Shown here: in pieces, positions 2,574 to 64,000 of the stretch
Numbering within the stretch: the stretch's first letter is position 1
Layout: the number at the start of each line of letters is the position of its first letter
NCBI GenBank assembly: GCA_002772745.1
Contig: PFDV01000008.1
Span: 21,828-85,827, forward strand
Length of the DNA stretch: 64,000 nucleotides
Direction: 5' to 3'
Source: Candidatus Peregrinibacteria bacterium CG10_big_fil_rev_8_21_14_0_10_55_24
Lineage (GTDB): Bacteria > Patescibacteriota > Gracilibacteria > Peribacterales > Peribacteraceae
Translations under genes and position numbers: made by a program
Notes under the pieces: generated by a model
Seen by the model: the letters and a program-made list of their open reading frames with translations, nothing else
What the model was told of the DNA's origin: nothing
Databases searched by the model: none

Positions 2574-2677
2574 TGCATGTGCAGCCTAGCACGATAGAGG
2601 AGCGACAACCATCTCCCCATTTTGCACCCGACTCCGTCCGGCTCCGCTCTCGCTGCGCCGGAACTACGCCGGACGAG

Positions 2678-2740
2678 CCTCCCGCACTTTCTGCACCTCC
2701 CGCACCTTCCGCACCTTCCTGACTTTCCGTACCTTCCTCT
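2678..2740 (+). repeat. 9-bp-period pyrimidine array, 7 units
   Basis: Units: cctcccgca ctttctgca cctcccgca ccttccgca ccttcctga ctttccgta ccttcctct. A weaker periodicity extends over about 2610..2765. It lies directly upstream of the TACACT box and the M23 start. Confidence 0.85.
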
Positions 2741-2768
2741 CCCCCACCCTCCGCCCTACACTCCCCTC

Positions 2769-4194: not shown

Positions 4195-4205
4195 GAGAAC
4201 ATGCT

Positions 4206-4235
4206 ACCCGAACCCGAACCCCAACCCGAACCCTA
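4206..4235 (+). repeat. 6-bp tandem array (ACCCGA)n, 5 units
   Basis: Units: acccga acccga acccca acccga acccta. Located between the rlmD 3' end and the rlmH start. Confidence 0.85.
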
Positions 4236-8606: not shown

Positions 8607-8641
8607 ATGCGAAATGGAGCATGGAAAATGGATAATGGCAA
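8607..8641 (+). repeat. 7-bp tandem array (ATGGAnn), 4-5 units
   Basis: Units: atggagc atggaaa atggata atggcaa. It starts 3 nt after the nucleotidyltransferase stop codon. Confidence 0.75.
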
Positions 8642-8784
8642 CGAACAACTCTTTGCGGGCAAGGTGCGACGATCATGGCTCACACTGCACCCCGTGTTTC
8701 ACGCAGAATACTTTGCAGAAACACAGGTGTTCCATTGCGTCCGATACCCCCCTTCCCTACACTCAGCCCGATTTGCGTAGAACT

Positions 8785-9447
8785 ATGAGAAAACGTATTC
8801 TCGCGCTCTCCGGCCTCCTGTTCCTCACCGCCTGTATTGGATCGCAGACGCTTGCCATGACTGCTCACTTCCGCACCGAGGATTCCGGCCGTAAGGCACA
8901 GGTGATCGCCGCACTGGAACGTGTGCTGGAACGTCGTGTATACGCCATTGAGGGCACGATCCCGGACACGATCATACGCGGAGAGGGAGAGAGCGCTCGC
9001 GTCACCGTACCCGTTGATGAGAAGGAGAGTAAGGAAATTCTTGCAGCACAGCTTACGGCTCCCCTGGGTTTCCGCCTCATGATCGAAACCGCCGAAGGGG
9101 AAGAACCCGACCTCACGAGCGAAGAGTTCGGATCGTTCTCGGATACCGGTATCACGGAAACAGTGATCGACTGGGTATATGCAGGGGAACAAGAGAGCAA
9201 AGGGACCATTTCGATCACCTTCACACCGGAGGGTGTCACGCTCCTTAAGCCCTTATTCGAGAAAAACGCAGGAAAGCGCCTGGGGCTTTTTGTGCACGGC
9301 GGCCTGGTATCGACATACGTCATCCGGGAAGGAGAGGATGATAAGGACAACATCGTCATCACAGGAATCCCTTCGAGCGATCTTGCACAAATCTTTGCCG
9401 ACGACGTGAATGTCGGCACCTACGTGACATTCACTTCGATCCCCTAA
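8785..9447 (+). CDS. Lipoprotein with a SecD-head-like C-terminal segment
   Basis: MRKRILALSGLLFLTAC is a lipobox. The C-terminal LGLFVHGGLVSTYVIREG...ITGIPSSDLAQIFADDVN resembles the SecD P1 segment. The start is chosen at ATG 8785. Confidence 0.6.
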   Translation: MRKRILALSGLLFLTACIGSQTLAMTAHFRTEDSGRKAQVIAALERVLERRVYAIEGTIPDTIIRGEGESARVTVPVDEKESKEILAAQLTAPLGFRLMIETAEGEEPDLTSEEFGSFSDTGITETVIDWVYAGEQESKGTISITFTPEGVTLLKPLFEKNAGKRLGLFVHGGLVSTYVIREGEDDKDNIVITGIPSSDLAQIFADDVNVGTYVTFTSIP

Positions 9448-22128: not shown

Positions 22129-22180
22129 GATGACAGAGTGTGCTGATGGTGTTGCGCACGGTCAAGAGAGGAAGTGTAAA

Positions 22181-22215
22181 AACCCAACCCGAACCCTAAT
22201 CCTAACCCGAATGCC
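22181..22215 (+). repeat. 6-bp-period CCCGAA/CCCTAA-type array
   Basis: Reads aacccaacccgaaccctaatcctaacccgaatgcc. Located between the efp start and the 3' end of the anti-sigma gene. Confidence 0.8.
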
Positions 22216-24765: not shown

Positions 24766-24903
24766 GGAAAAGAGGTTTTGGTCGGTTAAGAAGGTTTCGT
24801 CAGGTCAGGGAGTTGCCGTAAGCCTCCCAAATCTCCTGTACCTCCCTTACCTGCCAAACCTCTTGTTTCTCCCACACCTTCAGCACTTCCCGCACTTTCA
24901 CAC
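24766..24903 (+). repeat. Inverted pair of 9-bp-period arrays (purine-type arm 24766..24819, pyrimidine-type arm 24823..24903)
   Basis: Right arm: cctcccaaa tctcctgta cctccctta cctgccaaa cctcttgtt tctcccaca ccttcagca cttcccgca ctttcacac. Left arm: ggaaaagag gttttggtc ggttaagaa ggtttcgtc aggtcaggg agttgccgt. Confidence 0.8.
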
Positions 24904-24909
24904 CCCTCC

Positions 24910-26733
24910 TCACTCCCACTCGATCGTCGCCGGAGGCTTACTCGTGAGATCGAGGAAGACCATGTCGATACCAGAGAGCGTCATGATGCGCTCTATCATG
25001 GCACGCAACGCCGACTCCGGAAGGTGAGCGGCATCGGCCGTCATGGCATCGGTAGATTCGATGGGGCGCAGGACAATCGATTGTCCGCCCGTACGCGTGC
25101 CAAACGGGAGGAGTACCACGGGGAACTGCCAAATGGCCTCATAGAGCCCGGCTTTGCGTACCTCTTCCATCACCATGGCATCGGCCTCCCGCAGGAGGTT
25201 CGCGCGCTCGCGGCTAAGGAACCCCGGGGTGAAGACAAAGGGAACGGGCTCCGCATGCGACATACTGAGGAGCACGCGATTGATCTGCGGCGTGGTGTTG
25301 GGGATCTCCGTCGCCAAACGTTCCACCTCGGGAGGAACGGAAAAGGGATCTTCACAGAAGAGCGCGAGCGCATGGCGATAGGTACGCCCGTCGCCCTGTA
25401 CACCAACGGACTTCACTGGCAACACCTGGCTTCTGATTCCTGGCTTCTGATTTTCGACCGAAGGTACATCAACAACGTCGGGCTTCTCTGCACAGAGGAT
25501 GCGCACGCCCAAGCCCGGACCCGGAAAGGGATGGCGCCATACCAAATCATGTGGCAATCCCAGTTCCTCGCCGAGCTTGCGCACCTCATCCTTGTAAAGA
25601 TCCTTGAGCGGCTCCACCACGAGACCTTTGTCGATCATCTCCTGAATCATTTGCACTCGGTTATGGTGCGTCTTGATCTGATCGGCATGCTTGGTGCCTC
25701 CCGTTTCGATGGTATCGGGATAAATCGTCCCCTGCCCCAGCATCCACCCTTGCTCCGCGGTGAGTCCCATTTCAGCGCTGACGCGCTGCTGCACGGCAAC
25801 GAATGTATCACCGATGACTTTGCGCTTCGCTTCGGGCTCGTAGACGCCGGTGAGGTTGGCGAAGAATTCTTCGGAGGCATCTTCGACACGCAAGTTGGGA
25901 AGCTTGAGCTTGCCCAGTGCTTCCTCGATTTGCCGCACTTCATCCTTGCGCATGAGTCCGGTATCGACGAGCAACCCCTGCACGCGATCAGTACCGAGGA
26001 TGGAATCGAGGAGGGTGAAGGCAACCGTGGAATCCACTCCACCAGAGACGAGCATGAAGACTTTATGATCCTCGACTTCGCTGCGGATGACGTCGCCGAT
26101 GTGCGCGGCGTAACTCTTCACCGACCAGGGTGCGGGGTTACAGAGCTCCACGAAACTCCGGAGGATGTCGTTTCCATGCTGCGTGTGCGTGACTTCGGGG
26201 TGGAACTGCAGCGCGAAGAGCTTGCGCTTTGGATCTTCGAACGCGGCATTCGCACAGGCATCGGAGGTGGCAGTACGCACAAATCCGGCAGGAAGCTCTG
26301 TGGCCTCGTCTCCATGCGACATCCAGACGACGAACTCTTCCGGGCACGCATGGAAAAGCATTGATCGTTGACACGAGCCCGAACCCTCAACCCGAATCCG
26401 CGTCCGCCCGTACTCCTTCACTTTCCCCTGCATCACCGTTCCATCCAGTGCCTGCGTCATCCAGTGGAGTCCGTAACAGAGCCCCAAGATAGGAATTTTC
26501 AAATCGAAGATTTTGGGGTCAGCCTGAGGGCTCCCCGACTCGTACACGCTTTGGGGACCTCCGGAGAGAATGATTCCGGCTGCACCCTGGAGCGCCGAAG
26601 CCGGAGTTTCGGGCGGGAGGATCTGCGCATATGCGCCAAAGCGCCGAACACGACTTGCGATAAGGTGCGCGTACTGACCCCCGAAGTCGAGGATAACGAT
26701 GCTCTGGGGGTGCTCCATACGCATAGAGTACAT
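24910..26733 (-). CDS. guaA: GMP synthase (glutamine-hydrolysing), long form with an extended C-terminal dimerisation region
   Basis: GATase (ILDFGGQYAHLIA, LGLCYGLHWM, VWMSHGD, LQFHPE), the ATP-PPase P-loop VSGGVDSTV, and the C-terminus KPPATIEWE. Candidate starts are 26733, 26724 and 26718. The upstream part of track ORF 24910..27042 is not GuaA-like. Confidence 0.9.
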   Translation of the reverse strand: MYSMRMEHPQSIVILDFGGQYAHLIASRVRRFGAYAQILPPETPASALQGAAGIILSGGPQSVYESGSPQADPKIFDLKIPILGLCYGLHWMTQALDGTVMQGKVKEYGRTRIRVEGSGSCQRSMLFHACPEEFVVWMSHGDEATELPAGFVRTATSDACANAAFEDPKRKLFALQFHPEVTHTQHGNDILRSFVELCNPAPWSVKSYAAHIGDVIRSEVEDHKVFMLVSGGVDSTVAFTLLDSILGTDRVQGLLVDTGLMRKDEVRQIEEALGKLKLPNLRVEDASEEFFANLTGVYEPEAKRKVIGDTFVAVQQRVSAEMGLTAEQGWMLGQGTIYPDTIETGGTKHADQIKTHHNRVQMIQEMIDKGLVVEPLKDLYKDEVRKLGEELGLPHDLVWRHPFPGPGLGVRILCAEKPDVVDVPSVENQKPGIRSQVLPVKSVGVQGDGRTYRHALALFCEDPFSVPPEVERLATEIPNTTPQINRVLLSMSHAEPVPFVFTPGFLSRERANLLREADAMVMEEVRKAGLYEAIWQFPVVLLPFGTRTGGQSIVLRPIESTDAMTADAAHLPESALRAMIERIMTLSGIDMVFLDLTSKPPATIEWE

Positions 26734-26783
26734 GGATCGGCAAGTTGTTGACAAAAAATAATGATGATACAAAAATACATTTA

Positions 26784-27734
26784 ATGGGACAACAGAGCAC
26801 CCTCCACATGGTGTTTGCTCAGGCAGTACGTGAATGCGGACAGGTTGTTCCCCGTATGGATTCTGCTGCGCGTGATCGCCCGTCACAGGAGCGACAGCAC
26901 TTCTTCTCTCTGGCAATAAACGGGTTTCGCTACGGATTGGAAGCCCTGCTGGCAGGAACTCGGCAAGAGGACGATGGCCACGGGCGCCGTGATGTTGTGA
27001 TGAATCCGCAGGAAATGCAGCGCAGACACGAACTTGCGGCACAGTTCACTTCGGCAATCGTGCATCAGTTGCCGGAGGACATCATTGAAGGCAACGATGA
27101 AACCGCGCTCTTCATTGCAAAACATATCGGCTTCGCACGCGCGCGAATGCAGATCCTCACAGAGCGCAGCGAAATGCTGCAGGGGGAAGACCGGGAACTT
27201 GATCCTTTGACACTTAAGGCACTGTTCGCAAAAGCACGCATGCAGACGGAGGGGGTGCTCGCACACAAAATACAGGAACTGAACCTGGACCTGCGATCCG
27301 CTATCCGCGAATGCCGCTCCTTCGCAGAAGGAATGATCTTGGGACATCGCCCGCTCCTGGTCGTCGCACAGCGCCTCCCCGCTGAGGAACGCATGATCCT
27401 TGGCAAAAGGGCGGCAGAGCGCACCGATACGCGCGTCCCGGAAATGATGGGTGCATGGCATGCACTCTTCAGCAATACCTTCGAAACCAGCGAGGATGAC
27501 CGGAGGAGAATCAATAACCTCTGCGAGAGGACGGCACATCACTGGTCCGAGATGCGCGCGGGAGAACTCATCATGAATACGATTCCTGAGTTGCGCAGAC
27601 AACGATCAGAAAGACGCAGGAGCCAACCGGTCATCATCCTCGACGACACGCCAGAGGAAGATGCAGATCCTCCGCAACAGTCATCGGCGGACACGCCGCA
27701 GGATTTCCTGAGACAATTGGAAGAACAGGAGTGA
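26784..27734 (+). CDS. Hypothetical protein (about 316 aa), helical, with an acidic C-terminus
   Basis: Track ORF 26745..27734, with the start moved to ATG 26784. No recognisable motif. Confidence 0.5.
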   Translation: MGQQSTLHMVFAQAVRECGQVVPRMDSAARDRPSQERQHFFSLAINGFRYGLEALLAGTRQEDDGHGRRDVVMNPQEMQRRHELAAQFTSAIVHQLPEDIIEGNDETALFIAKHIGFARARMQILTERSEMLQGEDRELDPLTLKALFAKARMQTEGVLAHKIQELNLDLRSAIRECRSFAEGMILGHRPLLVVAQRLPAEERMILGKRAAERTDTRVPEMMGAWHALFSNTFETSEDDRRRINNLCERTAHHWSEMRAGELIMNTIPELRRQRSERRRSQPVIILDDTPEEDADPPQQSSADTPQDFLRQLEEQE

Positions 27735-35667: not shown

Positions 35668-35822
35668 CCTTGACCTCCTTTCAGAAGTTTGACGGACGAA
35701 TCTGCCGCGCTCCAAGCGAGACAGATGTCTTCCCACAGTGGCAAAGAGCGAAGGAGACAGTATAGGAAATCGAATAACTTTTCATTTATGCTTTTTCCGA
35801 TTTAAGCTTTTCTTGGTGTCCA

Positions 35823-36323
35823 CTAATTTATTTTGTTGAGAAGGTGACCAAACCATGCGACAAGTTCTGTAACCTTTCCCGCATGGAGCAATGGAAGCGG
35901 CGTTGGATGCTCAATCCGAAATATTTTTCCGTTTTCGAGCGTTACTCTGACGCTATTGTCGCCCATGACATCAATCTTTGAAACAGGAGAATCATACGTT
36001 TTCTTGCCGTAATTCCAAAGCGTCGGACCACCACATCCGTACTGGCTCAAATATGTCTTGCGACCATCGAATACGTACTCTCTTTGACCAAGCGTTGTAG
36101 CTCCGAGTTTTTTACCAACAACGATGTCATCATAGAAACACCCCGATAAAGTTCCTGAACCAATTCCATTTTGATTGCCGCACTCCTGAATAATTACCGA
36201 TACGGGAATACCATGTATTTTAAAAGCTTTCGATGGATACCTATCACAAGACTCAAGAACTTCATCTGGGTTTCCAACTTCTGGCGATTTGTACGGATTT
36301 ACTTCGGATATCTTCTCTGTCAT
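35823..36323 (-). CDS. Hypothetical protein (166 aa) encoded in an A+T-rich cassette
   Basis: It is the only long ORF in a compositionally distinct segment. It has its own GTGACA-17-TATTCT promoter-like site and an AAAGGAA ribosome-binding-like element. No family recognised. Confidence 0.6.
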   Translation of the reverse strand: MTEKISEVNPYKSPEVGNPDEVLESCDRYPSKAFKIHGIPVSVIIQECGNQNGIGSGTLSGCFYDDIVVGKKLGATTLGQREYVFDGRKTYLSQYGCGGPTLWNYGKKTYDSPVSKIDVMGDNSVRVTLENGKIFRIEHPTPLPLLHAGKVTELVAWFGHLLNKIN

Positions 36324-36373: not shown

Positions 36374-36421
36374 TAGCCACCCACTACCAAGAAAAGCTTA
36401 AAGCGCCTAACACGCAGCGTA

Positions 36422-37132
36422 CTACAGCACATGTTCTCTCCTCCATCGCTCTATTTCGGCGTGATTGCCGTTGAGGAGCACATCAGGAACTGCGAATTCC
36501 TCAAATTTCTCCGGGCGCGTGTAGTGGGGGTATTCCCGCTTGCGCTTGAGACATGCAGAGAAGCTCTCCTCGTGAGCGGATTCATCCTTCCCCAGCACCC
36601 CAGGAATCTGCCGTGCCACGGCATCAATGAGCACCATGGCGGGGAGTTCCCCGCCCGTGAGTACGTAGTCGCCGATCGAAATCTCCTCATCGATCCACCC
36701 GCCGTCGATGACGCGCTGATCAATGCCTTCGTAGTGTCCGCAGAGCAGGAGCAGATGATCGTACGATCGAGCCATGCGCTCAACGCGCGTTTGCGTAAGA
36801 CGCTTACCACGCGGGGAGAGGAAAATCCTGTGCGGACGCTCCGCGCTTCCCGCACTTCCCTTACCTTCCTTACCTGCCGAACCTTCTGCACCTCCAGCAC
36901 CTTCCCCACTCACCTCCTCAATCGCCCGCACCACCACATCCGCTCTGAGAACCATACCCGCCCCGCCCCCGTACGGCCGGTCGTCGACTTGGCGGTAGCG
37001 ACCCAAACCCCACTGCCGCAAGTCGTGGCAATGGATGGAAATCCGCCCCTCCTCCTGCGCCCGCTTGAGAATGCTCTCGGTCAGGGGCCCTGTGAACATG
37101 CCTGGGAACAGCGTCAAGATGTCGATGCGCAT
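36422..37132 (-). CDS. trmD: tRNA (guanine37-N1)-methyltransferase, with an in-frame low-complexity insertion
   Basis: [69 protein letters not shown] and NHAEIERWR. The insertion is [24 protein letters not shown]. Confidence 0.95.
36837..36908 (+). repeat. 9-bp-period array inside the trmD coding sequence (8 units, in frame)
   Basis: Units: cgctccgcg cttcccgca cttccctta ccttcctta cctgccgaa ccttctgca cctccagca ccttcccca. Positions 36881..36905 are identical to 63153..63177 (25 nt). Confidence 0.9.
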
Positions 37133-37140
37133 GCGGAATC

Positions 37141-37148
37141 AGTATAGA
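37141..37148. promoter_or_regulatory. Overlapping divergent -10-like boxes: TATACT for trmD (minus) and TATAGA for the GT2 gene (plus)
   Basis: The sequence agtataga sits in the 26-nt trmD/GT2 intergenic spacer, 8 nt from ATG 37132 and 10 nt from ATG 37159. Confidence 0.4.
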
Positions 37149-37158
37149 GTAGGACCCC

Positions 37159-41918: not shown

Positions 41919-43724
41919 TTAGGAGAGCAGAGAAGTAAGACGGACAACCAGGTCTGTGGAGGAAAACGCCCGACCATCATACGCAAGAATGCGATCGTTG
42001 ATCGTCGTTATACCATGCATGGCAAGAAGCATATGGAGTTGGCCTTGCTGATTCCCCTCAACGAGCACTCTGCGTTTTGCACGAGCAGCAAGCGCACGGA
42101 CCCGTTCTGTTTTGAGTGGCCAGAGATATGTGTAGTGAAGATATCCGATAACCGAGGAAACATGCGTCGCGGTCAACTCTTCCAGAGCATCAAGGGCTGC
42201 GCCCTTCGTACTCCCCCAACCCACGACAAGGAGATCTATTTGACTTCCTGCACTTTCCGCACCTTCCAACCCAATCTCCCCATCTCTCGCCACCCACAAC
42301 TCCGGACCAGGCAATGATTGCTGCAACACTTTCATCTTACGCATGCGTTTCTCCATCTGCGCCTTGGCATTCTGCGCCGATTCTTCGAAGGACCCATCGG
42401 GCGCGTGCTCGTAGCTCTGCGCGCAGTATGTCGCCGCCTTCGTCCCGGGGAGCCAGCGAGGCGAGACGCCGTTCTCCTCATCCGTCGCGTAGCGATCGGC
42501 AGAGGTGAGACTGGCGAGCTTGCGAGCATCCGTCACGAGCGCACCACGGCGCAGCTGAGTGCGATCCATGGGAAAGTGCTCCACGACCGAGATGGCCTCC
42601 GCGGTGTGTTTGTCCGTGAGAACAATCACGGGGAGCTGCCACTCTTCGGCCAAGTTGAATGCTTCCGGCATCAGGGAAAATGCGTCCACGGCATCGCTCA
42701 CGGAAAGCACGACGCGCGGAAACTCTCCGTGGCCACTCCCAACCGCAAGGAGTAAGTCCCCCTGTGCTGTCCACGTGGGGAGTCCCGTCCCAGGACCGGG
42801 ACGCTGCGCGAGCACAATGACAAGGGGTGTCTCAGAAATACCGCACATCGATACGGTTTCTGTCATCAGGTCGTAGCCACCGCCCGAGGTGGCCGTTGCC
42901 GCGCGCGTTCCGGCGTGCATCGCACCCACGGTCATCTGCACCGCAGTGATCTCGTCCTCGGCCTGCTTGATTACCATGCCGGATTGCTTCTGAATATCGG
43001 CAAGGAAGGAGAGGAGCGGCGATGCAGGGGTCATGGGATACCCCGCGAAGAATCTGCATCCCGCGTGCACCATCCCCAAACCCATAGCCTGACTCCCTGT
43101 GAGGAGCAGTTGATTTTTCCAACGATCATCGGGCTTTGGGAGTGAAAGCCGCAATGCTTCCGCCTGCTCCTGAGCAAACGCCCATCCCGCATCGATACAT
43201 GCAAGGTTCTGTGCAAGCAGATCCTTCTTGTGTCCAAAACGTTCCTGAACGAGCGCGAAGAGTTCCTCCTTGGCACGACCGAGAATGGCCCACACCACCG
43301 CCGTAATGAGCACATTCCCTAAGATCGGCTTGGCATGAAGCTTTGCGAGAATTTCCTCCGTCGGCAGGTAGAGGACGGAAATCTCCCGGTCTCTGAGGTA
43401 CTCTTGATCTTCTGGACGCTCAAAGGTCCATTGGAGCGTCTGGTGGAGCAGCACGCCCCCCGGCTTGAGATCATGGAGATTGAAAAGGATGCCATGGTGG
43501 TTAAAAGAAACAACAACATCTACGAGTGCAGAGGAACTGCGAACCAGACTGTCACTGACATCCAGTTGGTAACTGCTATGTCCGCCCTTGATCAACGATG
43601 CATACTCACGATTGCCGAACACGCAGTACCCCGCACGCTTGAGACCCTTTGCCACCATCTCCCCCACGGAGTTCACTCCCTGGCCTTGGGCGCCGACGAT
43701 CTTGAAAGCGATACGATTAGCCAT
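41919..43724 (-). CDS. korA: 2-oxoacid:ferredoxin oxidoreductase, alpha subunit (gamma-alpha fusion type)
   Basis: N-terminal POR gamma-like KIVGAQGQGVNSVGEM, then the alpha domains (FFAGYPMTPAS, ATSGGGYDLMTE, VVGWGSTKGA). Confidence 0.9.
   Translation of the reverse strand: MANRIAFKIVGAQGQGVNSVGEMVAKGLKRAGYCVFGNREYASLIKGGHSSYQLDVSDSLVRSSSALVDVVVSFNHHGILFNLHDLKPGGVLLHQTLQWTFERPEDQEYLRDREISVLYLPTEEILAKLHAKPILGNVLITAVVWAILGRAKEELFALVQERFGHKKDLLAQNLACIDAGWAFAQEQAEALRLSLPKPDDRWKNQLLLTGSQAMGLGMVHAGCRFFAGYPMTPASPLLSFLADIQKQSGMVIKQAEDEITAVQMTVGAMHAGTRAATATSGGGYDLMTETVSMCGISETPLVIVLAQRPGPGTGLPTWTAQGDLLLAVGSGHGEFPRVVLSVSDAVDAFSLMPEAFNLAEEWQLPVIVLTDKHTAEAISVVEHFPMDRTQLRRGALVTDARKLASLTSADRYATDEENGVSPRWLPGTKAATYCAQSYEHAPDGSFEESAQNAKAQMEKRMRKMKVLQQSLPGPELWVARDGEIGLEGAESAGSQIDLLVVGWGSTKGAALDALEELTATHVSSVIGYLHYTYLWPLKTERVRALAARAKRRVLVEGNQQGQLHMLLAMHGITTINDRILAYDGRAFSSTDLVVRLTSLLS
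42244..42270 (+). repeat. 9-bp-period array inside the korA coding sequence (3 units, in frame)
   Basis: Units: cttcctgca ctttccgca ccttccaac. They encode GLEGAESAG on the gene strand. Confidence 0.7.
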
Positions 43725-62826: not shown

Positions 62827-63036
62827 CTACACCCTCTTCCCCTCCTGCAGACGCTTGGAGAGCGTGCGCAGGTACGCCGCAGAAACTTTCATTGTTTTAA
62901 AGGTGCCCGTGGCAGGATCCCAGACACGCTTCTTCTGCAGATTAGGACGAAACGTGCGGCGTGTGTGCCTCAGTGAGTGGCTGCGGGTATTCCCCACGGC
63001 GGTCTTTCTGCCGGTCTTGACGCACTTGCGTGCCAT
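62827..63036 (-). CDS. rpmB: 50S ribosomal protein L28
   Basis: [38 protein letters not shown]. Confidence 0.9.
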
Positions 63037-63084: not shown

Positions 63085-63234
63085 CGGGAGAAGTGCGGGC
63101 AGTGCAGAAGCTGCGGGATGTACGAAACGCAAAAGCAATCGAGCCGCTGTTCACCTTCTGCACCTCCAGCACCTTCCGCACCTGCCAAACCTTCCTAACC
63201 TCCCAAACCTTCCACACCTCCTGCACCTGCGCTA
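63085..63234 (+). repeat. Inverted pair of 9-bp-period arrays in the rpmB/M50 divergent intergenic region (purine-type arm 63085..63129, pyrimidine-type arm 63154..63234)
   Basis: Right arm: ccttctgca cctccagca ccttccgca cctgccaaa ccttcctaa cctcccaaa ccttccaca cctcctgca cctgcgcta. Left arm: cgggagaag tgcgggcag tgcagaagc tgcgggatg tacgaaacg. Confidence 0.9.
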
Positions 63235-63250
63235 CACTCGCACCTCACCC

Positions 63251-63931
63251 ATGGCACTCTTCTCCAACATCGGCGAGTTCGCCCCCTTCGTCATCGCCAT
63301 TTTGATCGCGCTTTCCGTCCATGAATTCGCACACGGCCTCGTGGCACGACGCCTGGGTGACCCCACCGCCGAGACAGAGGGAAGACTCACCCTCAATCCC
63401 CTGGCACATCTCGATCCTTTGGGGACACTCATGTTCCTCTTTGTAGGATTCGGTTGGGGGAAACCTGTTCCCGTGAATCCCCTTTACTTCCGCCACCCCA
63501 AGCGCGACACCGCACTGGTGTCACTCGCGGGACCAGTGAGCAATCTGCTCCTCGCTTGGATCGGCTTTAGCGGACTCGTGCTGCTTGGCACCTCACAGCT
63601 GAACCCTTCGCTCCTGGGCATCATCAGAACGGGGTCCACGGGAGGCATTGTCCTGGTCATCGAACAGATCCTGCGCGACACGATCTTCATCAACCTGGCG
63701 CTGATGGCGTTCAACCTGCTTCCCATCGCCCCGCTGGATGGATCGAAAGTTCTCCATATGTTCATCCCGCTACGTTATGAGGATGCGTACGTGGAATTCA
63801 TGCGGCGCGGACCGTTTATTCTCCTGCTGCTCCTCATCGCAGACCAGCTTCTCAATATCCCCATCCTCTTCGGATGGATCATGGGCATTGTGGGACCGGT
63901 GGTTGCCCTGATGAATGCTGTAGGGGGGTGA
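63251..63931 (+). CDS. Site-2 protease family (peptidase M50) membrane metalloprotease
   Basis: LSVHEFAHGLVARRLGD (HExxH), NLLPIAPLDGSKV, and multiple transmembrane helices. Confidence 0.85.
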   Translation: MALFSNIGEFAPFVIAILIALSVHEFAHGLVARRLGDPTAETEGRLTLNPLAHLDPLGTLMFLFVGFGWGKPVPVNPLYFRHPKRDTALVSLAGPVSNLLLAWIGFSGLVLLGTSQLNPSLLGIIRTGSTGGIVLVIEQILRDTIFINLALMAFNLLPIAPLDGSKVLHMFIPLRYEDAYVEFMRRGPFILLLLLIADQLLNIPILFGWIMGIVGPVVALMNAVGG

Positions 63932-63999
63932 GTATGAAGTATGAAGTATGAAGTATCTAGTATAAGGAAGCTGGATACTGAATACTCAATACTCGATAC
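63929..63999 (+). repeat. Inverted pair of 7-bp tandem arrays (AGTATnn direct, then ATACTnn), truncated by the window edge
   Basis: Reads gtatgaa gtatgaa gtatgaa gtatc...tagtataagg aagctg gatactg aatactc aatactc gatact. The second block is the reverse complement of AGTAT-type units. Confidence 0.8.
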
Positions 64000-64000
64000 T

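Follow-up and report, generated by a model that had tools for sequence, protein, structure and literature searches.

A class-wide hot spot for tandem arrays in the TrmD loop of Peribacteria and its 9-bp array in one trmD gene

The trmD gene in the window (the whole 64-kb stretch of DNA that was analysed, from an uncultured member of Candidatus Peribacteria) carries, in frame, a tandem array of 9-bp units that belongs to a family of arrays found at both coding and non-coding sites of the same window. The protein loop that receives this array is a class-wide hot spot for tandem arrays in Peribacteria rather than the site of a one-off insertion, and each Peribacteria genome favours its own array units. 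We consider it rather probable that these arrays are near-neutral long simple-sequence repeats (LSSRs) that spread by slippage and by recombination between arrays into permissive loops, and that the peptide within TrmD is a tolerated disordered loop.

The 9-bp array in trmD

The trmD gene (36422..37132, minus strand) is an intact open reading frame (ORF) of 236 aa. Its product matches Pfam PF01746 (tRNA_m1G_MT) over residues 23-234 with an E-value of 1.7e-51 and a score of 175 bits (cut-off 27.3). It also matches 27 distinct solved TrmD sequences, the best at 2.5e-58, and the solved TrmDs align over query residues 1-235. Structure prediction with AlphaFold2 from 74 homologues gave a model of mean pLDDT 76.7, and the top Foldseek matches to this model are all TrmD (E down to 1.5e-21, TM about 0.65). 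Judged by these similarities, the ORF is a member of the TrmD family of tRNA (guanine37-N1)-methyltransferases (SPOUT class, PF01746). TrmD is an antibiotic target. Its essentiality is taken here from the literature on other bacteria (PMC6795141). The start codons of trmD and of a divergent family-2 glycosyltransferase gene lie 26 nt apart (37133-37158), with AGTATA in the spacer, and this short distance suggests that the leaders of both genes are very short or absent. Immediately downstream of trmD sits a 166-aa ORF of unknown function (35823..36323, minus strand), which is bracketed by a 20-nt inverted repeat of 95% complementarity (35798-35817 and 36386-36405).

An earlier note on this DNA had reported eight array units inserted in frame into trmD at 36837-36908. 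The array, its frame and its number of units all stand, and the coordinates were 2 nt off: about eight in-frame units, GGAAGGTGC-like on the coding strand, occupy 36839..36910 (minus strand) and correspond to residues 75-98. TRF reports a period of 9 across 36841-36904. Lag-9 identity of the array is 0.70-0.75, and no 45-nt window with a lag-9 identity of 0.75 was found in 708 kb of shuffled Peribacteria DNA. A PWM of the unit (NNACCTYCC on the plus strand) gives one run in trmD, at 36834-36914, scoring 34.4 bits against a shuffle maximum of 14.5. In register on the plus strand, the units read GCGCTTCCC GCACTTCCC TTACCTTCC TTACCTGCC GAACCTTCT GCACCTCCA GCACCTTCC CCACTCACC. Translation yields chiefly Glu-Gly-Ala or Gly-Ser-Ala per unit, and the loop peptide, with four Glu and two Lys, is mildly acidic. 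As a head-to-tail direct repeat of about eight units with a period of 9, the array fits the definition of an LSSR, for which the unit is 5-11 nt.

The comparison with solved TrmD proteins agrees with the earlier note both in its placement of the insert, between the VVRAIEE helix and a strand, and in its statement that other TrmDs have only a short loop at this position. In HMMER alignments, most PDB TrmDs align in two stretches that skip query residues 75-97, and S. aureus TrmD has just three residues between the loop flanks. PDB chains that align in a single stretch (e.g. 1P9P and 1UAJ) place 209 residues over query residues 2-233, which is 23 fewer. Among genomes retrieved with the same query, the loop measures 3-8 aa outside Peribacteria vs 4-40 aa within the class. 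The AlphaFold2 model has a helix at residues 64-80, pLDDT below 50 for residues 81-96 and a strand at 101-111; the array peptide is thus predicted to be a disordered loop of the N-terminal SPOUT domain between this helix and this strand.

Several familiar types of repeat were considered for the trmD array and rejected. The peptide is not a collagen-like (Gly-X-Y)n sequence, with Gly at positions 2, 4, 6, 7, 10, 13, 16, 18 and 21 of 24 rather than at every third. A phase-variable contingency locus does not fit a 9-bp unit, which is frame-neutral, or an array that is identical in all eight contigs in which it was found. The variable region of a diversity-generating retroelement was set aside because the trmD array has one exact block in common with the array that separates rpmB from an M50 peptidase gene, beyond which the two sequences diverge completely, with no A-specific mismatch pattern.

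That the array might be an assembly artefact or a chimera is in practice refuted. Two independent MEGAHIT assemblies (contigs L081 and L082) do end at 36938, 28 nt upstream of the array, as an artefact might lead one to expect. This contig end is the source of a 171-aa TrmD fragment in protein databases; the 90%-identity cluster of the window TrmD contains the full protein, this fragment and nothing else. Against an artefact, trmD or its array-bearing part is present in eight contigs from at least seven assemblies, made in different projects with different assemblers, and all of them equal the window in trmD, the only contig that differs from the window doing so solely in the adjacent glycosyltransferase gene. 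Because identical DNA was assembled independently in these eight contigs, mis-assembly is excluded. The trmD reading frame is also intact, and relatives have arrays in the same loop of the gene. The variation in unit number between strains that the earlier note had raised did not appear: no unit-number variant of the window array was found in the eight contigs (at least seven assemblies) or in a collection of 15 billion proteins, and slippage of the array in the window organism is therefore unobserved.

The TrmD loop across Peribacteria

Comparison with relatives shows that the insertion is not an event peculiar to the window genome. Across 120 Peribacteria TrmD homologues, the loop varies from 1 to 67 aa (median 18) and is essentially the sole region of variable length. 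Tandem arrays of at least three copies, called by TRF in 67 species-representative loci (L001-L066 and L079), are present in the TrmD loop of 24 species, the unit being 9 bp long in eight of them and 7 bp long in 16. Because the loop makes up 0.36% of the DNA examined, only about 0.9 loop arrays would be expected. The same concentration is evident for the 9-bp class by itself, as five of the eight strongest 9-periodic arrays in 721 kb lie inside the TrmD loop.

The heptamer arrays bear on a further claim, namely that a period of 9 bp, being equal to three codons, explains why the insertion is tolerated. This explanation is insufficient. Since two-thirds of the loop arrays (16/24) have 7-bp units that are read in all three frames, with a protein period of 7 aa, the source of the tolerance is the loop and not the three-codon period. 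The (GGAAAAT)n array in the loop of L024 is translated as MESGKWKMENGK, and the (TTATCAG)n array in that of L035 as LSVISYQ. In the heptamer array of the L036 loop, the one would-be TGA codon is altered.

Loop sequence and length change readily among close homologues. Pairs of TrmD proteins with 94-96% identity outside the loop can have unrelated loops, and length differences between close homologues are enriched in multiples of 3 aa. The loops of P0006 and P0263, which belong to one 90%-identity cluster of a relative, differ by exactly one 3-aa unit. Charge is not consistent either, since the window loop is mildly acidic and many relatives have loops rich in Lys and Arg. One subclade has a conserved, non-repetitive loop of 22 aa, TEAGRxSIxGMRKxKDVFGAKY. 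On a single-gene neighbour-joining (NJ) tree, array-bearing lineages are scattered among short-loop lineages, and the nearest species representative to the window on that tree, L019, has a loop of only four residues, QEGA.

In the relatives, the same trmD loop holds differing arrays, whose units recur in other arrays of their own genome much more frequently than in other genomes. Matches to the window 9-mer PWM among relatives are essentially limited to the trmD-loop arrays of L033 and L041. GGAAGGT-type nonamer arrays thus occupy the trmD loop in at least two distant lineages. An array of this type in the loop may therefore be old, and any transfer between trmD and intergenic arrays may have run in either direction.

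TrmD is not the only protein with such a site. The pyruvate (2-oxoacid):ferredoxin oxidoreductase (POR) alpha gene of the window (41919..43724, minus strand) contains three in-frame units of the window family (A4, 42241..42267, minus strand), which encode GLEGAESAGS in a loop between LPGPELW and DLLVVGWGS. Eleven relatives have heptamer or hexamer arrays at this site (L009, L016, L018, L023, L025, L027, L034, L036, L043, L054 and L058), which is one of four recurrent array sites in POR alpha. UDP-GlcNAc 2-epimerase has one recurrent site, after GIRTLTP, and another protein has one before LIGPNC; from this motif alone, we take the latter to be succinyl-CoA-ligase-like. These coding hot spots were defined with crude ORF calls, and the peptides that flank them are conserved. 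An array also often follows directly after the trmD stop codon (L023, L036, L043 and L061). At 7655-7711 of L036, a 9-bp array reads AGGTTGCGA on the plus strand and PSQPSQPPQPSQPPQ on the opposite strand, directly after the lipobox cysteine of what is presumably the counterpart of a thioredoxin-like protein in the window. Because this array is translated from the opposite strand, arrays serve as linkers in both orientations.

Array families and unit sharing

Scanning the window with the unit PWM returned five strong arrays, A1 to A5, each with its C-rich strand on the plus strand. GC skew is negative over nearly the whole window, which makes the G-rich strand of the chromosome and that of the arrays one and the same. 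A3 is the trmD array and A4 the one in POR alpha. The other three are intergenic: A1 (2675..2746, plus strand) lies upstream of an M23 peptidase gene and stops 23 nt before its ATG (2769); A2 (24820..24909, plus strand) directly adjoins the stop codon of guaA (24910-24912) and is located 87 nt upstream from the start (24736) of an ECF sigma factor gene; A5 (63151..63231, plus strand), with 9-10 units, lies between rpmB (62827..63036, minus strand; Ribosomal_L28) and the M50 peptidase gene (63251..63931, plus strand) and stops 20 nt short of the M50 ATG. A1 and A5 both occupy divergent intergenic regions and are both followed by the octamer CTACACTC, with the ATG of the plus-strand gene 20-23 nt on, and no obvious Shine-Dalgarno-like sequence precedes the M23 or M50 start codon. 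Two of the three intergenic window arrays, a small sample, therefore end 20-23 nt before a start codon.

The trmD array is a member of this family and shares with A5 a multi-unit block that goes beyond their common consensus. The 25/25 identity to the rpmB/M50 array reported in the earlier note is exact and spans 36881..36905 in trmD and 63153-63177 in A5, and this is the only other copy of the 25-mer in the window. When arrays were simulated from the family's own unit PWM, an exact match of at least 25 nt arose in 0.44% of trials (P of about 0.004), and the median longest match was 14 nt. A2, A3 and A5 also have in common ACCTGCC followed by RAACCT. Recombination or template switching that copied sequence from one array to another could account for the block shared by A3 and A5. 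These results, together with the sharing of units within genomes described below, uphold the claim that the trmD array is kin to the non-coding arrays rather than an independently evolved linker. A scan of metagenomes with an 18-mer from the block, GCACCTCCAGCACCTTCC, gave more than 118 unrelated high-GC matches, and none from the window organism was among the matches listed.

No flanks shared by the five window arrays were found when the arrays were aligned together with their surroundings. A mobile element with defined ends, or an insert like a Rickettsia palindromic element (RPE), was rejected for the family, whose members are direct repeats with no conserved flanks and with folding z-scores of -1.0 to -1.5. 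Scans of the window arrays for promoter-like or terminator-like sites found none, and a search of the window against Rfam gave one tRNA as the sole match, with none at the arrays. At 63088-63123 (minus strand), 27 nt from A5, there is a further, weak member of the family in inverted orientation, and inverted array pairs also occur in the relatives L018 and L046. A hairpin between A5 and this inverted partner was considered and rejected, its fold being no better than those of shuffles.

Other repeats are present in the window. Two roughly inverted heptamer arrays, (AGTATGA)n at 63931-63963 and (ATACTCA)n at 63975-64000, run from the M50 stop codon to the window end, and an (AAATGGA)n array at 8612-8638, of a unit class that is common in relatives, lies over the start of an ORF at 8614..9447. 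Hexamer repeats of the AACCCN type (ACCCGA x 4.7) at 4205-4235 and 22180-22198 are 95% identical and may be another small repeat family. The guaA ORF (24910..27042, minus strand; 710 aa) has its GATase domain from residue 116 and GMP_synt_C in two stretches, which suggests that the true start lies further downstream and that the protein contains inserts.

Sharing of units within a genome extends well beyond the window family. The 721 kb of the 67 loci (L001-L066 and L079) contain approximately 240 tandem arrays of at least three copies, or about one per 3 kb, most of them heptamers of around 4-5 copies; Peribacteria arrays have 7- or 9-bp units in 3-8 copies. In statistics drawn from 12-kb loci, the unit is identical in 6.9% of pairs of heptamer arrays from the same locus vs 0.77% of pairs from different genomes, a value that none of 2000 permutations reached. 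For trmD-loop arrays in the same 12-kb loci, units match 9.0% of the arrays of their own locus vs 0.65% of those in other genomes (odds ratio 15, p=1.4e-5). Units such as AAAATTG, AAAAGTG and AAGAATG are each common to the trmD loop and to other loci of the same genome in other species.

Explanations and known systems

According to the explanation that we favour, arrays would lengthen and shorten by slipped-strand mispairing, and multi-unit blocks would pass from one array to another by recombination or template switching, with the 25-nt block as the trace of one such exchange. Exchange between arrays would also homogenise the units within a genome. Selection would act as a filter, such that arrays survive solely where they are harmless, which would mean intergenic stretches and a small number of surface loops in conserved proteins. 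The trmD array would then occupy the only loop of TrmD whose structure is permissive, where a disordered peptide rich in Gly, Ala, Ser, Glu and Lys is tolerated, and a specific function of this peptide is improbable. How the arrays spread, and that the insert is neutral, is what we infer from several observations: the hot spot itself (24/67 species vs about 0.9 arrays expected) in the only length-variable region of the protein, the predicted disorder, heptamers read in three frames, units that are shared within genomes, the 25-nt block, indels of 3 aa, a second hot spot in POR alpha, the inconsistent charge of the loops and the scattered distribution of array-bearing lineages. Three observations pull the other way. 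No unit-number variant of the trmD array was found in the window organism. The positions of arrays persist across the class while their units turn over, and selection that keeps an array in place would account for this equally well. In addition, the recurrence of GGAAGGT-type nonamers in the trmD loop of distant lineages goes against free turnover and hints at constraint or shared ancestry.

Persistence of position despite turnover of units is also what the main alternative would predict, in which the arrays would be DNA or RNA cis-elements read by a hypothetical trans-acting factor that co-evolves with the unit, with the copies in trmD and POR alpha kept by selection and the peptide a tolerated by-product. 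Such a role would suit the genome-specific families of units, the Shine-Dalgarno-like GGAGGT on the G-rich strand of the arrays and the ends of A1 and A5, which lie 20-23 nt before starts that lack an obvious Shine-Dalgarno sequence and are followed by CTACACTC. The placement of these two arrays resembles that of TAACTGA repeats, for which a regulatory role has been proposed (PMC4679880). We nonetheless regard this explanation as unlikely, given that 43 of the 67 species have no detectable loop array, that loops which are degenerate or no longer than 4-10 aa are common, and that the window arrays have no promoter-like or terminator-like site, no significant fold and no Rfam match. A broader version, quite unlikely in our estimation, would have unit-specific arrays at conserved intergenic and essential-gene positions (trmD, POR alpha and UDP-GlcNAc 2-epimerase) either read by a factor or renewed by a dedicated repeat-copying mechanism. 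If this were true, the trmD insert would be primarily a regulatory or maintenance element and its peptide secondary.

Two further explanations place the cause in the protein or in base composition. The loop peptide could have a selected role, for example as a flexible arm for tRNA binding or for interaction with a partner, with the repeat as raw material. The strongly basic loops of many relatives, rich in Lys, Arg and Gly, could favour RNA binding, and one subclade keeps its conserved 22-aa loop. However, the window loop is mildly acidic, loops of 1-67 aa have no class-wide conserved motif, proteins with 94-96% core identity differ completely in this segment and the model predicts disorder. 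Because neither charge nor length nor sequence is conserved, a role at the protein level is improbable. Convergence, in which independent slippage under a shared compositional bias generates look-alike arrays without common descent, is still harder to credit and we consider it very improbable. A simple purine-rich core is present in all of the arrays, most Peribacteria loops start with x-E-G (GAAGG), which may be a local seed for GGAAGGT units, and the 18-mer of the shared block is found by chance in many unrelated metagenome contigs. These points are outweighed by the rarity of a shared 25-mer in simulations matched to the PWM (0.44%), by the succession of ACCTGCC and RAACCT in three arrays and by arbitrary heptamers (AAAATTG, AAAAGTG and AAGAATG) that recur in the trmD loop and elsewhere in the same genome.

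In Peribacteria, a class of the Candidate Phyla Radiation, repeats that are usually intergenic have been written repeatedly into the same loops of essential enzymes, including 7-base units read in three frames. The arrays provide a natural map of where TrmD tolerates insertions and account for a large part of the differences in length among Peribacteria proteins. Cases like the 171-aa TrmD fragment, which stops at a contig end, are to be expected in annotation and alignment. These very small genomes are also a tractable system for studying how dispersed micro-arrays evolve in concert. In the literature on Peribacteria repeats, TrmD insertions and low-complexity inserts of the Candidate Phyla Radiation, we found no description of TrmD arrays or of class-wide coding hot spots.

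Comparable systems are known from other organisms. RPEs, which were reportedly found in frame in protein genes by Ogata et al. in 2000, are palindromic mobile elements of 100-150 bp with defined ends. Like the Peribacteria arrays, they are dispersed repeats of a non-coding type that also enter essential genes without breaking the reading frame, at exposed surface positions where the protein can still function; the arrays, in contrast, repeat directly in tandem and have neither common flanks nor a significant hairpin. Housekeeping proteins of Plasmodium falciparum contain low-complexity inserts that are AT-driven and mostly Asn-rich. They too evolve quickly, derive from slippage and form disordered insertions within loops of conserved enzymes, but they are eukaryotic and have no tie to a dispersed array family.

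Closer parallels exist among prokaryotic repeats. LSSRs (Mrazek and co-workers 2007, as cited in PMC4679880 and PMC4692102) have units of 5-11 nt in prokaryotic genomes with heptamers the commonest, slippage is their proposed origin, and in coding DNA units of a multiple of 3 are expected. The Peribacteria arrays are alike in being head-to-tail, in having few copies of 7- or 9-nt units and in their abundance in some genomes, and differ in recurring class-wide in the same loops of housekeeping proteins, with heptamers in frame too, and in having genome-specific units common to coding and non-coding sites. The GGGNATC heptamer repeats of Xanthomonas and Nostoc are G-rich (PMC4692102) and, like the arrays described here, are short tandem repeats that occur genome-wide with a strand bias and near gene ends (PMC4692102), whereas the window units have only GG runs and are translated. 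In Peribacter riflensis, the main differences between strains are indels of some tens of bp, located in twelve proteins (PMC4736985), which is compatible with the array picture.

Of the systems described so far, the TAACTGA direct repeats of marine Beggiatoaceae and cyanobacteria come closest; they are mostly intergenic and often just upstream of starts (MacGregor 2015, PMC4679880). Occasionally these repeats lie inside ORFs, in reverse orientation, and are translated as LSVISYQ (PMC4679880), which is exactly what the (TTATCAG)n array encodes in the trmD loop of L035. The unit in the window is different, a GGAAGGTGC-like 9-mer, and reverse TAACTGA occurs in the trmD loop of L035 only. Most copies inside Beggiatoaceae ORFs are found at protein termini or belong to hypothetical proteins (PMC4679880), whereas the arrays in Peribacteria trmD lie within the catalytic domain of an essential enzyme.
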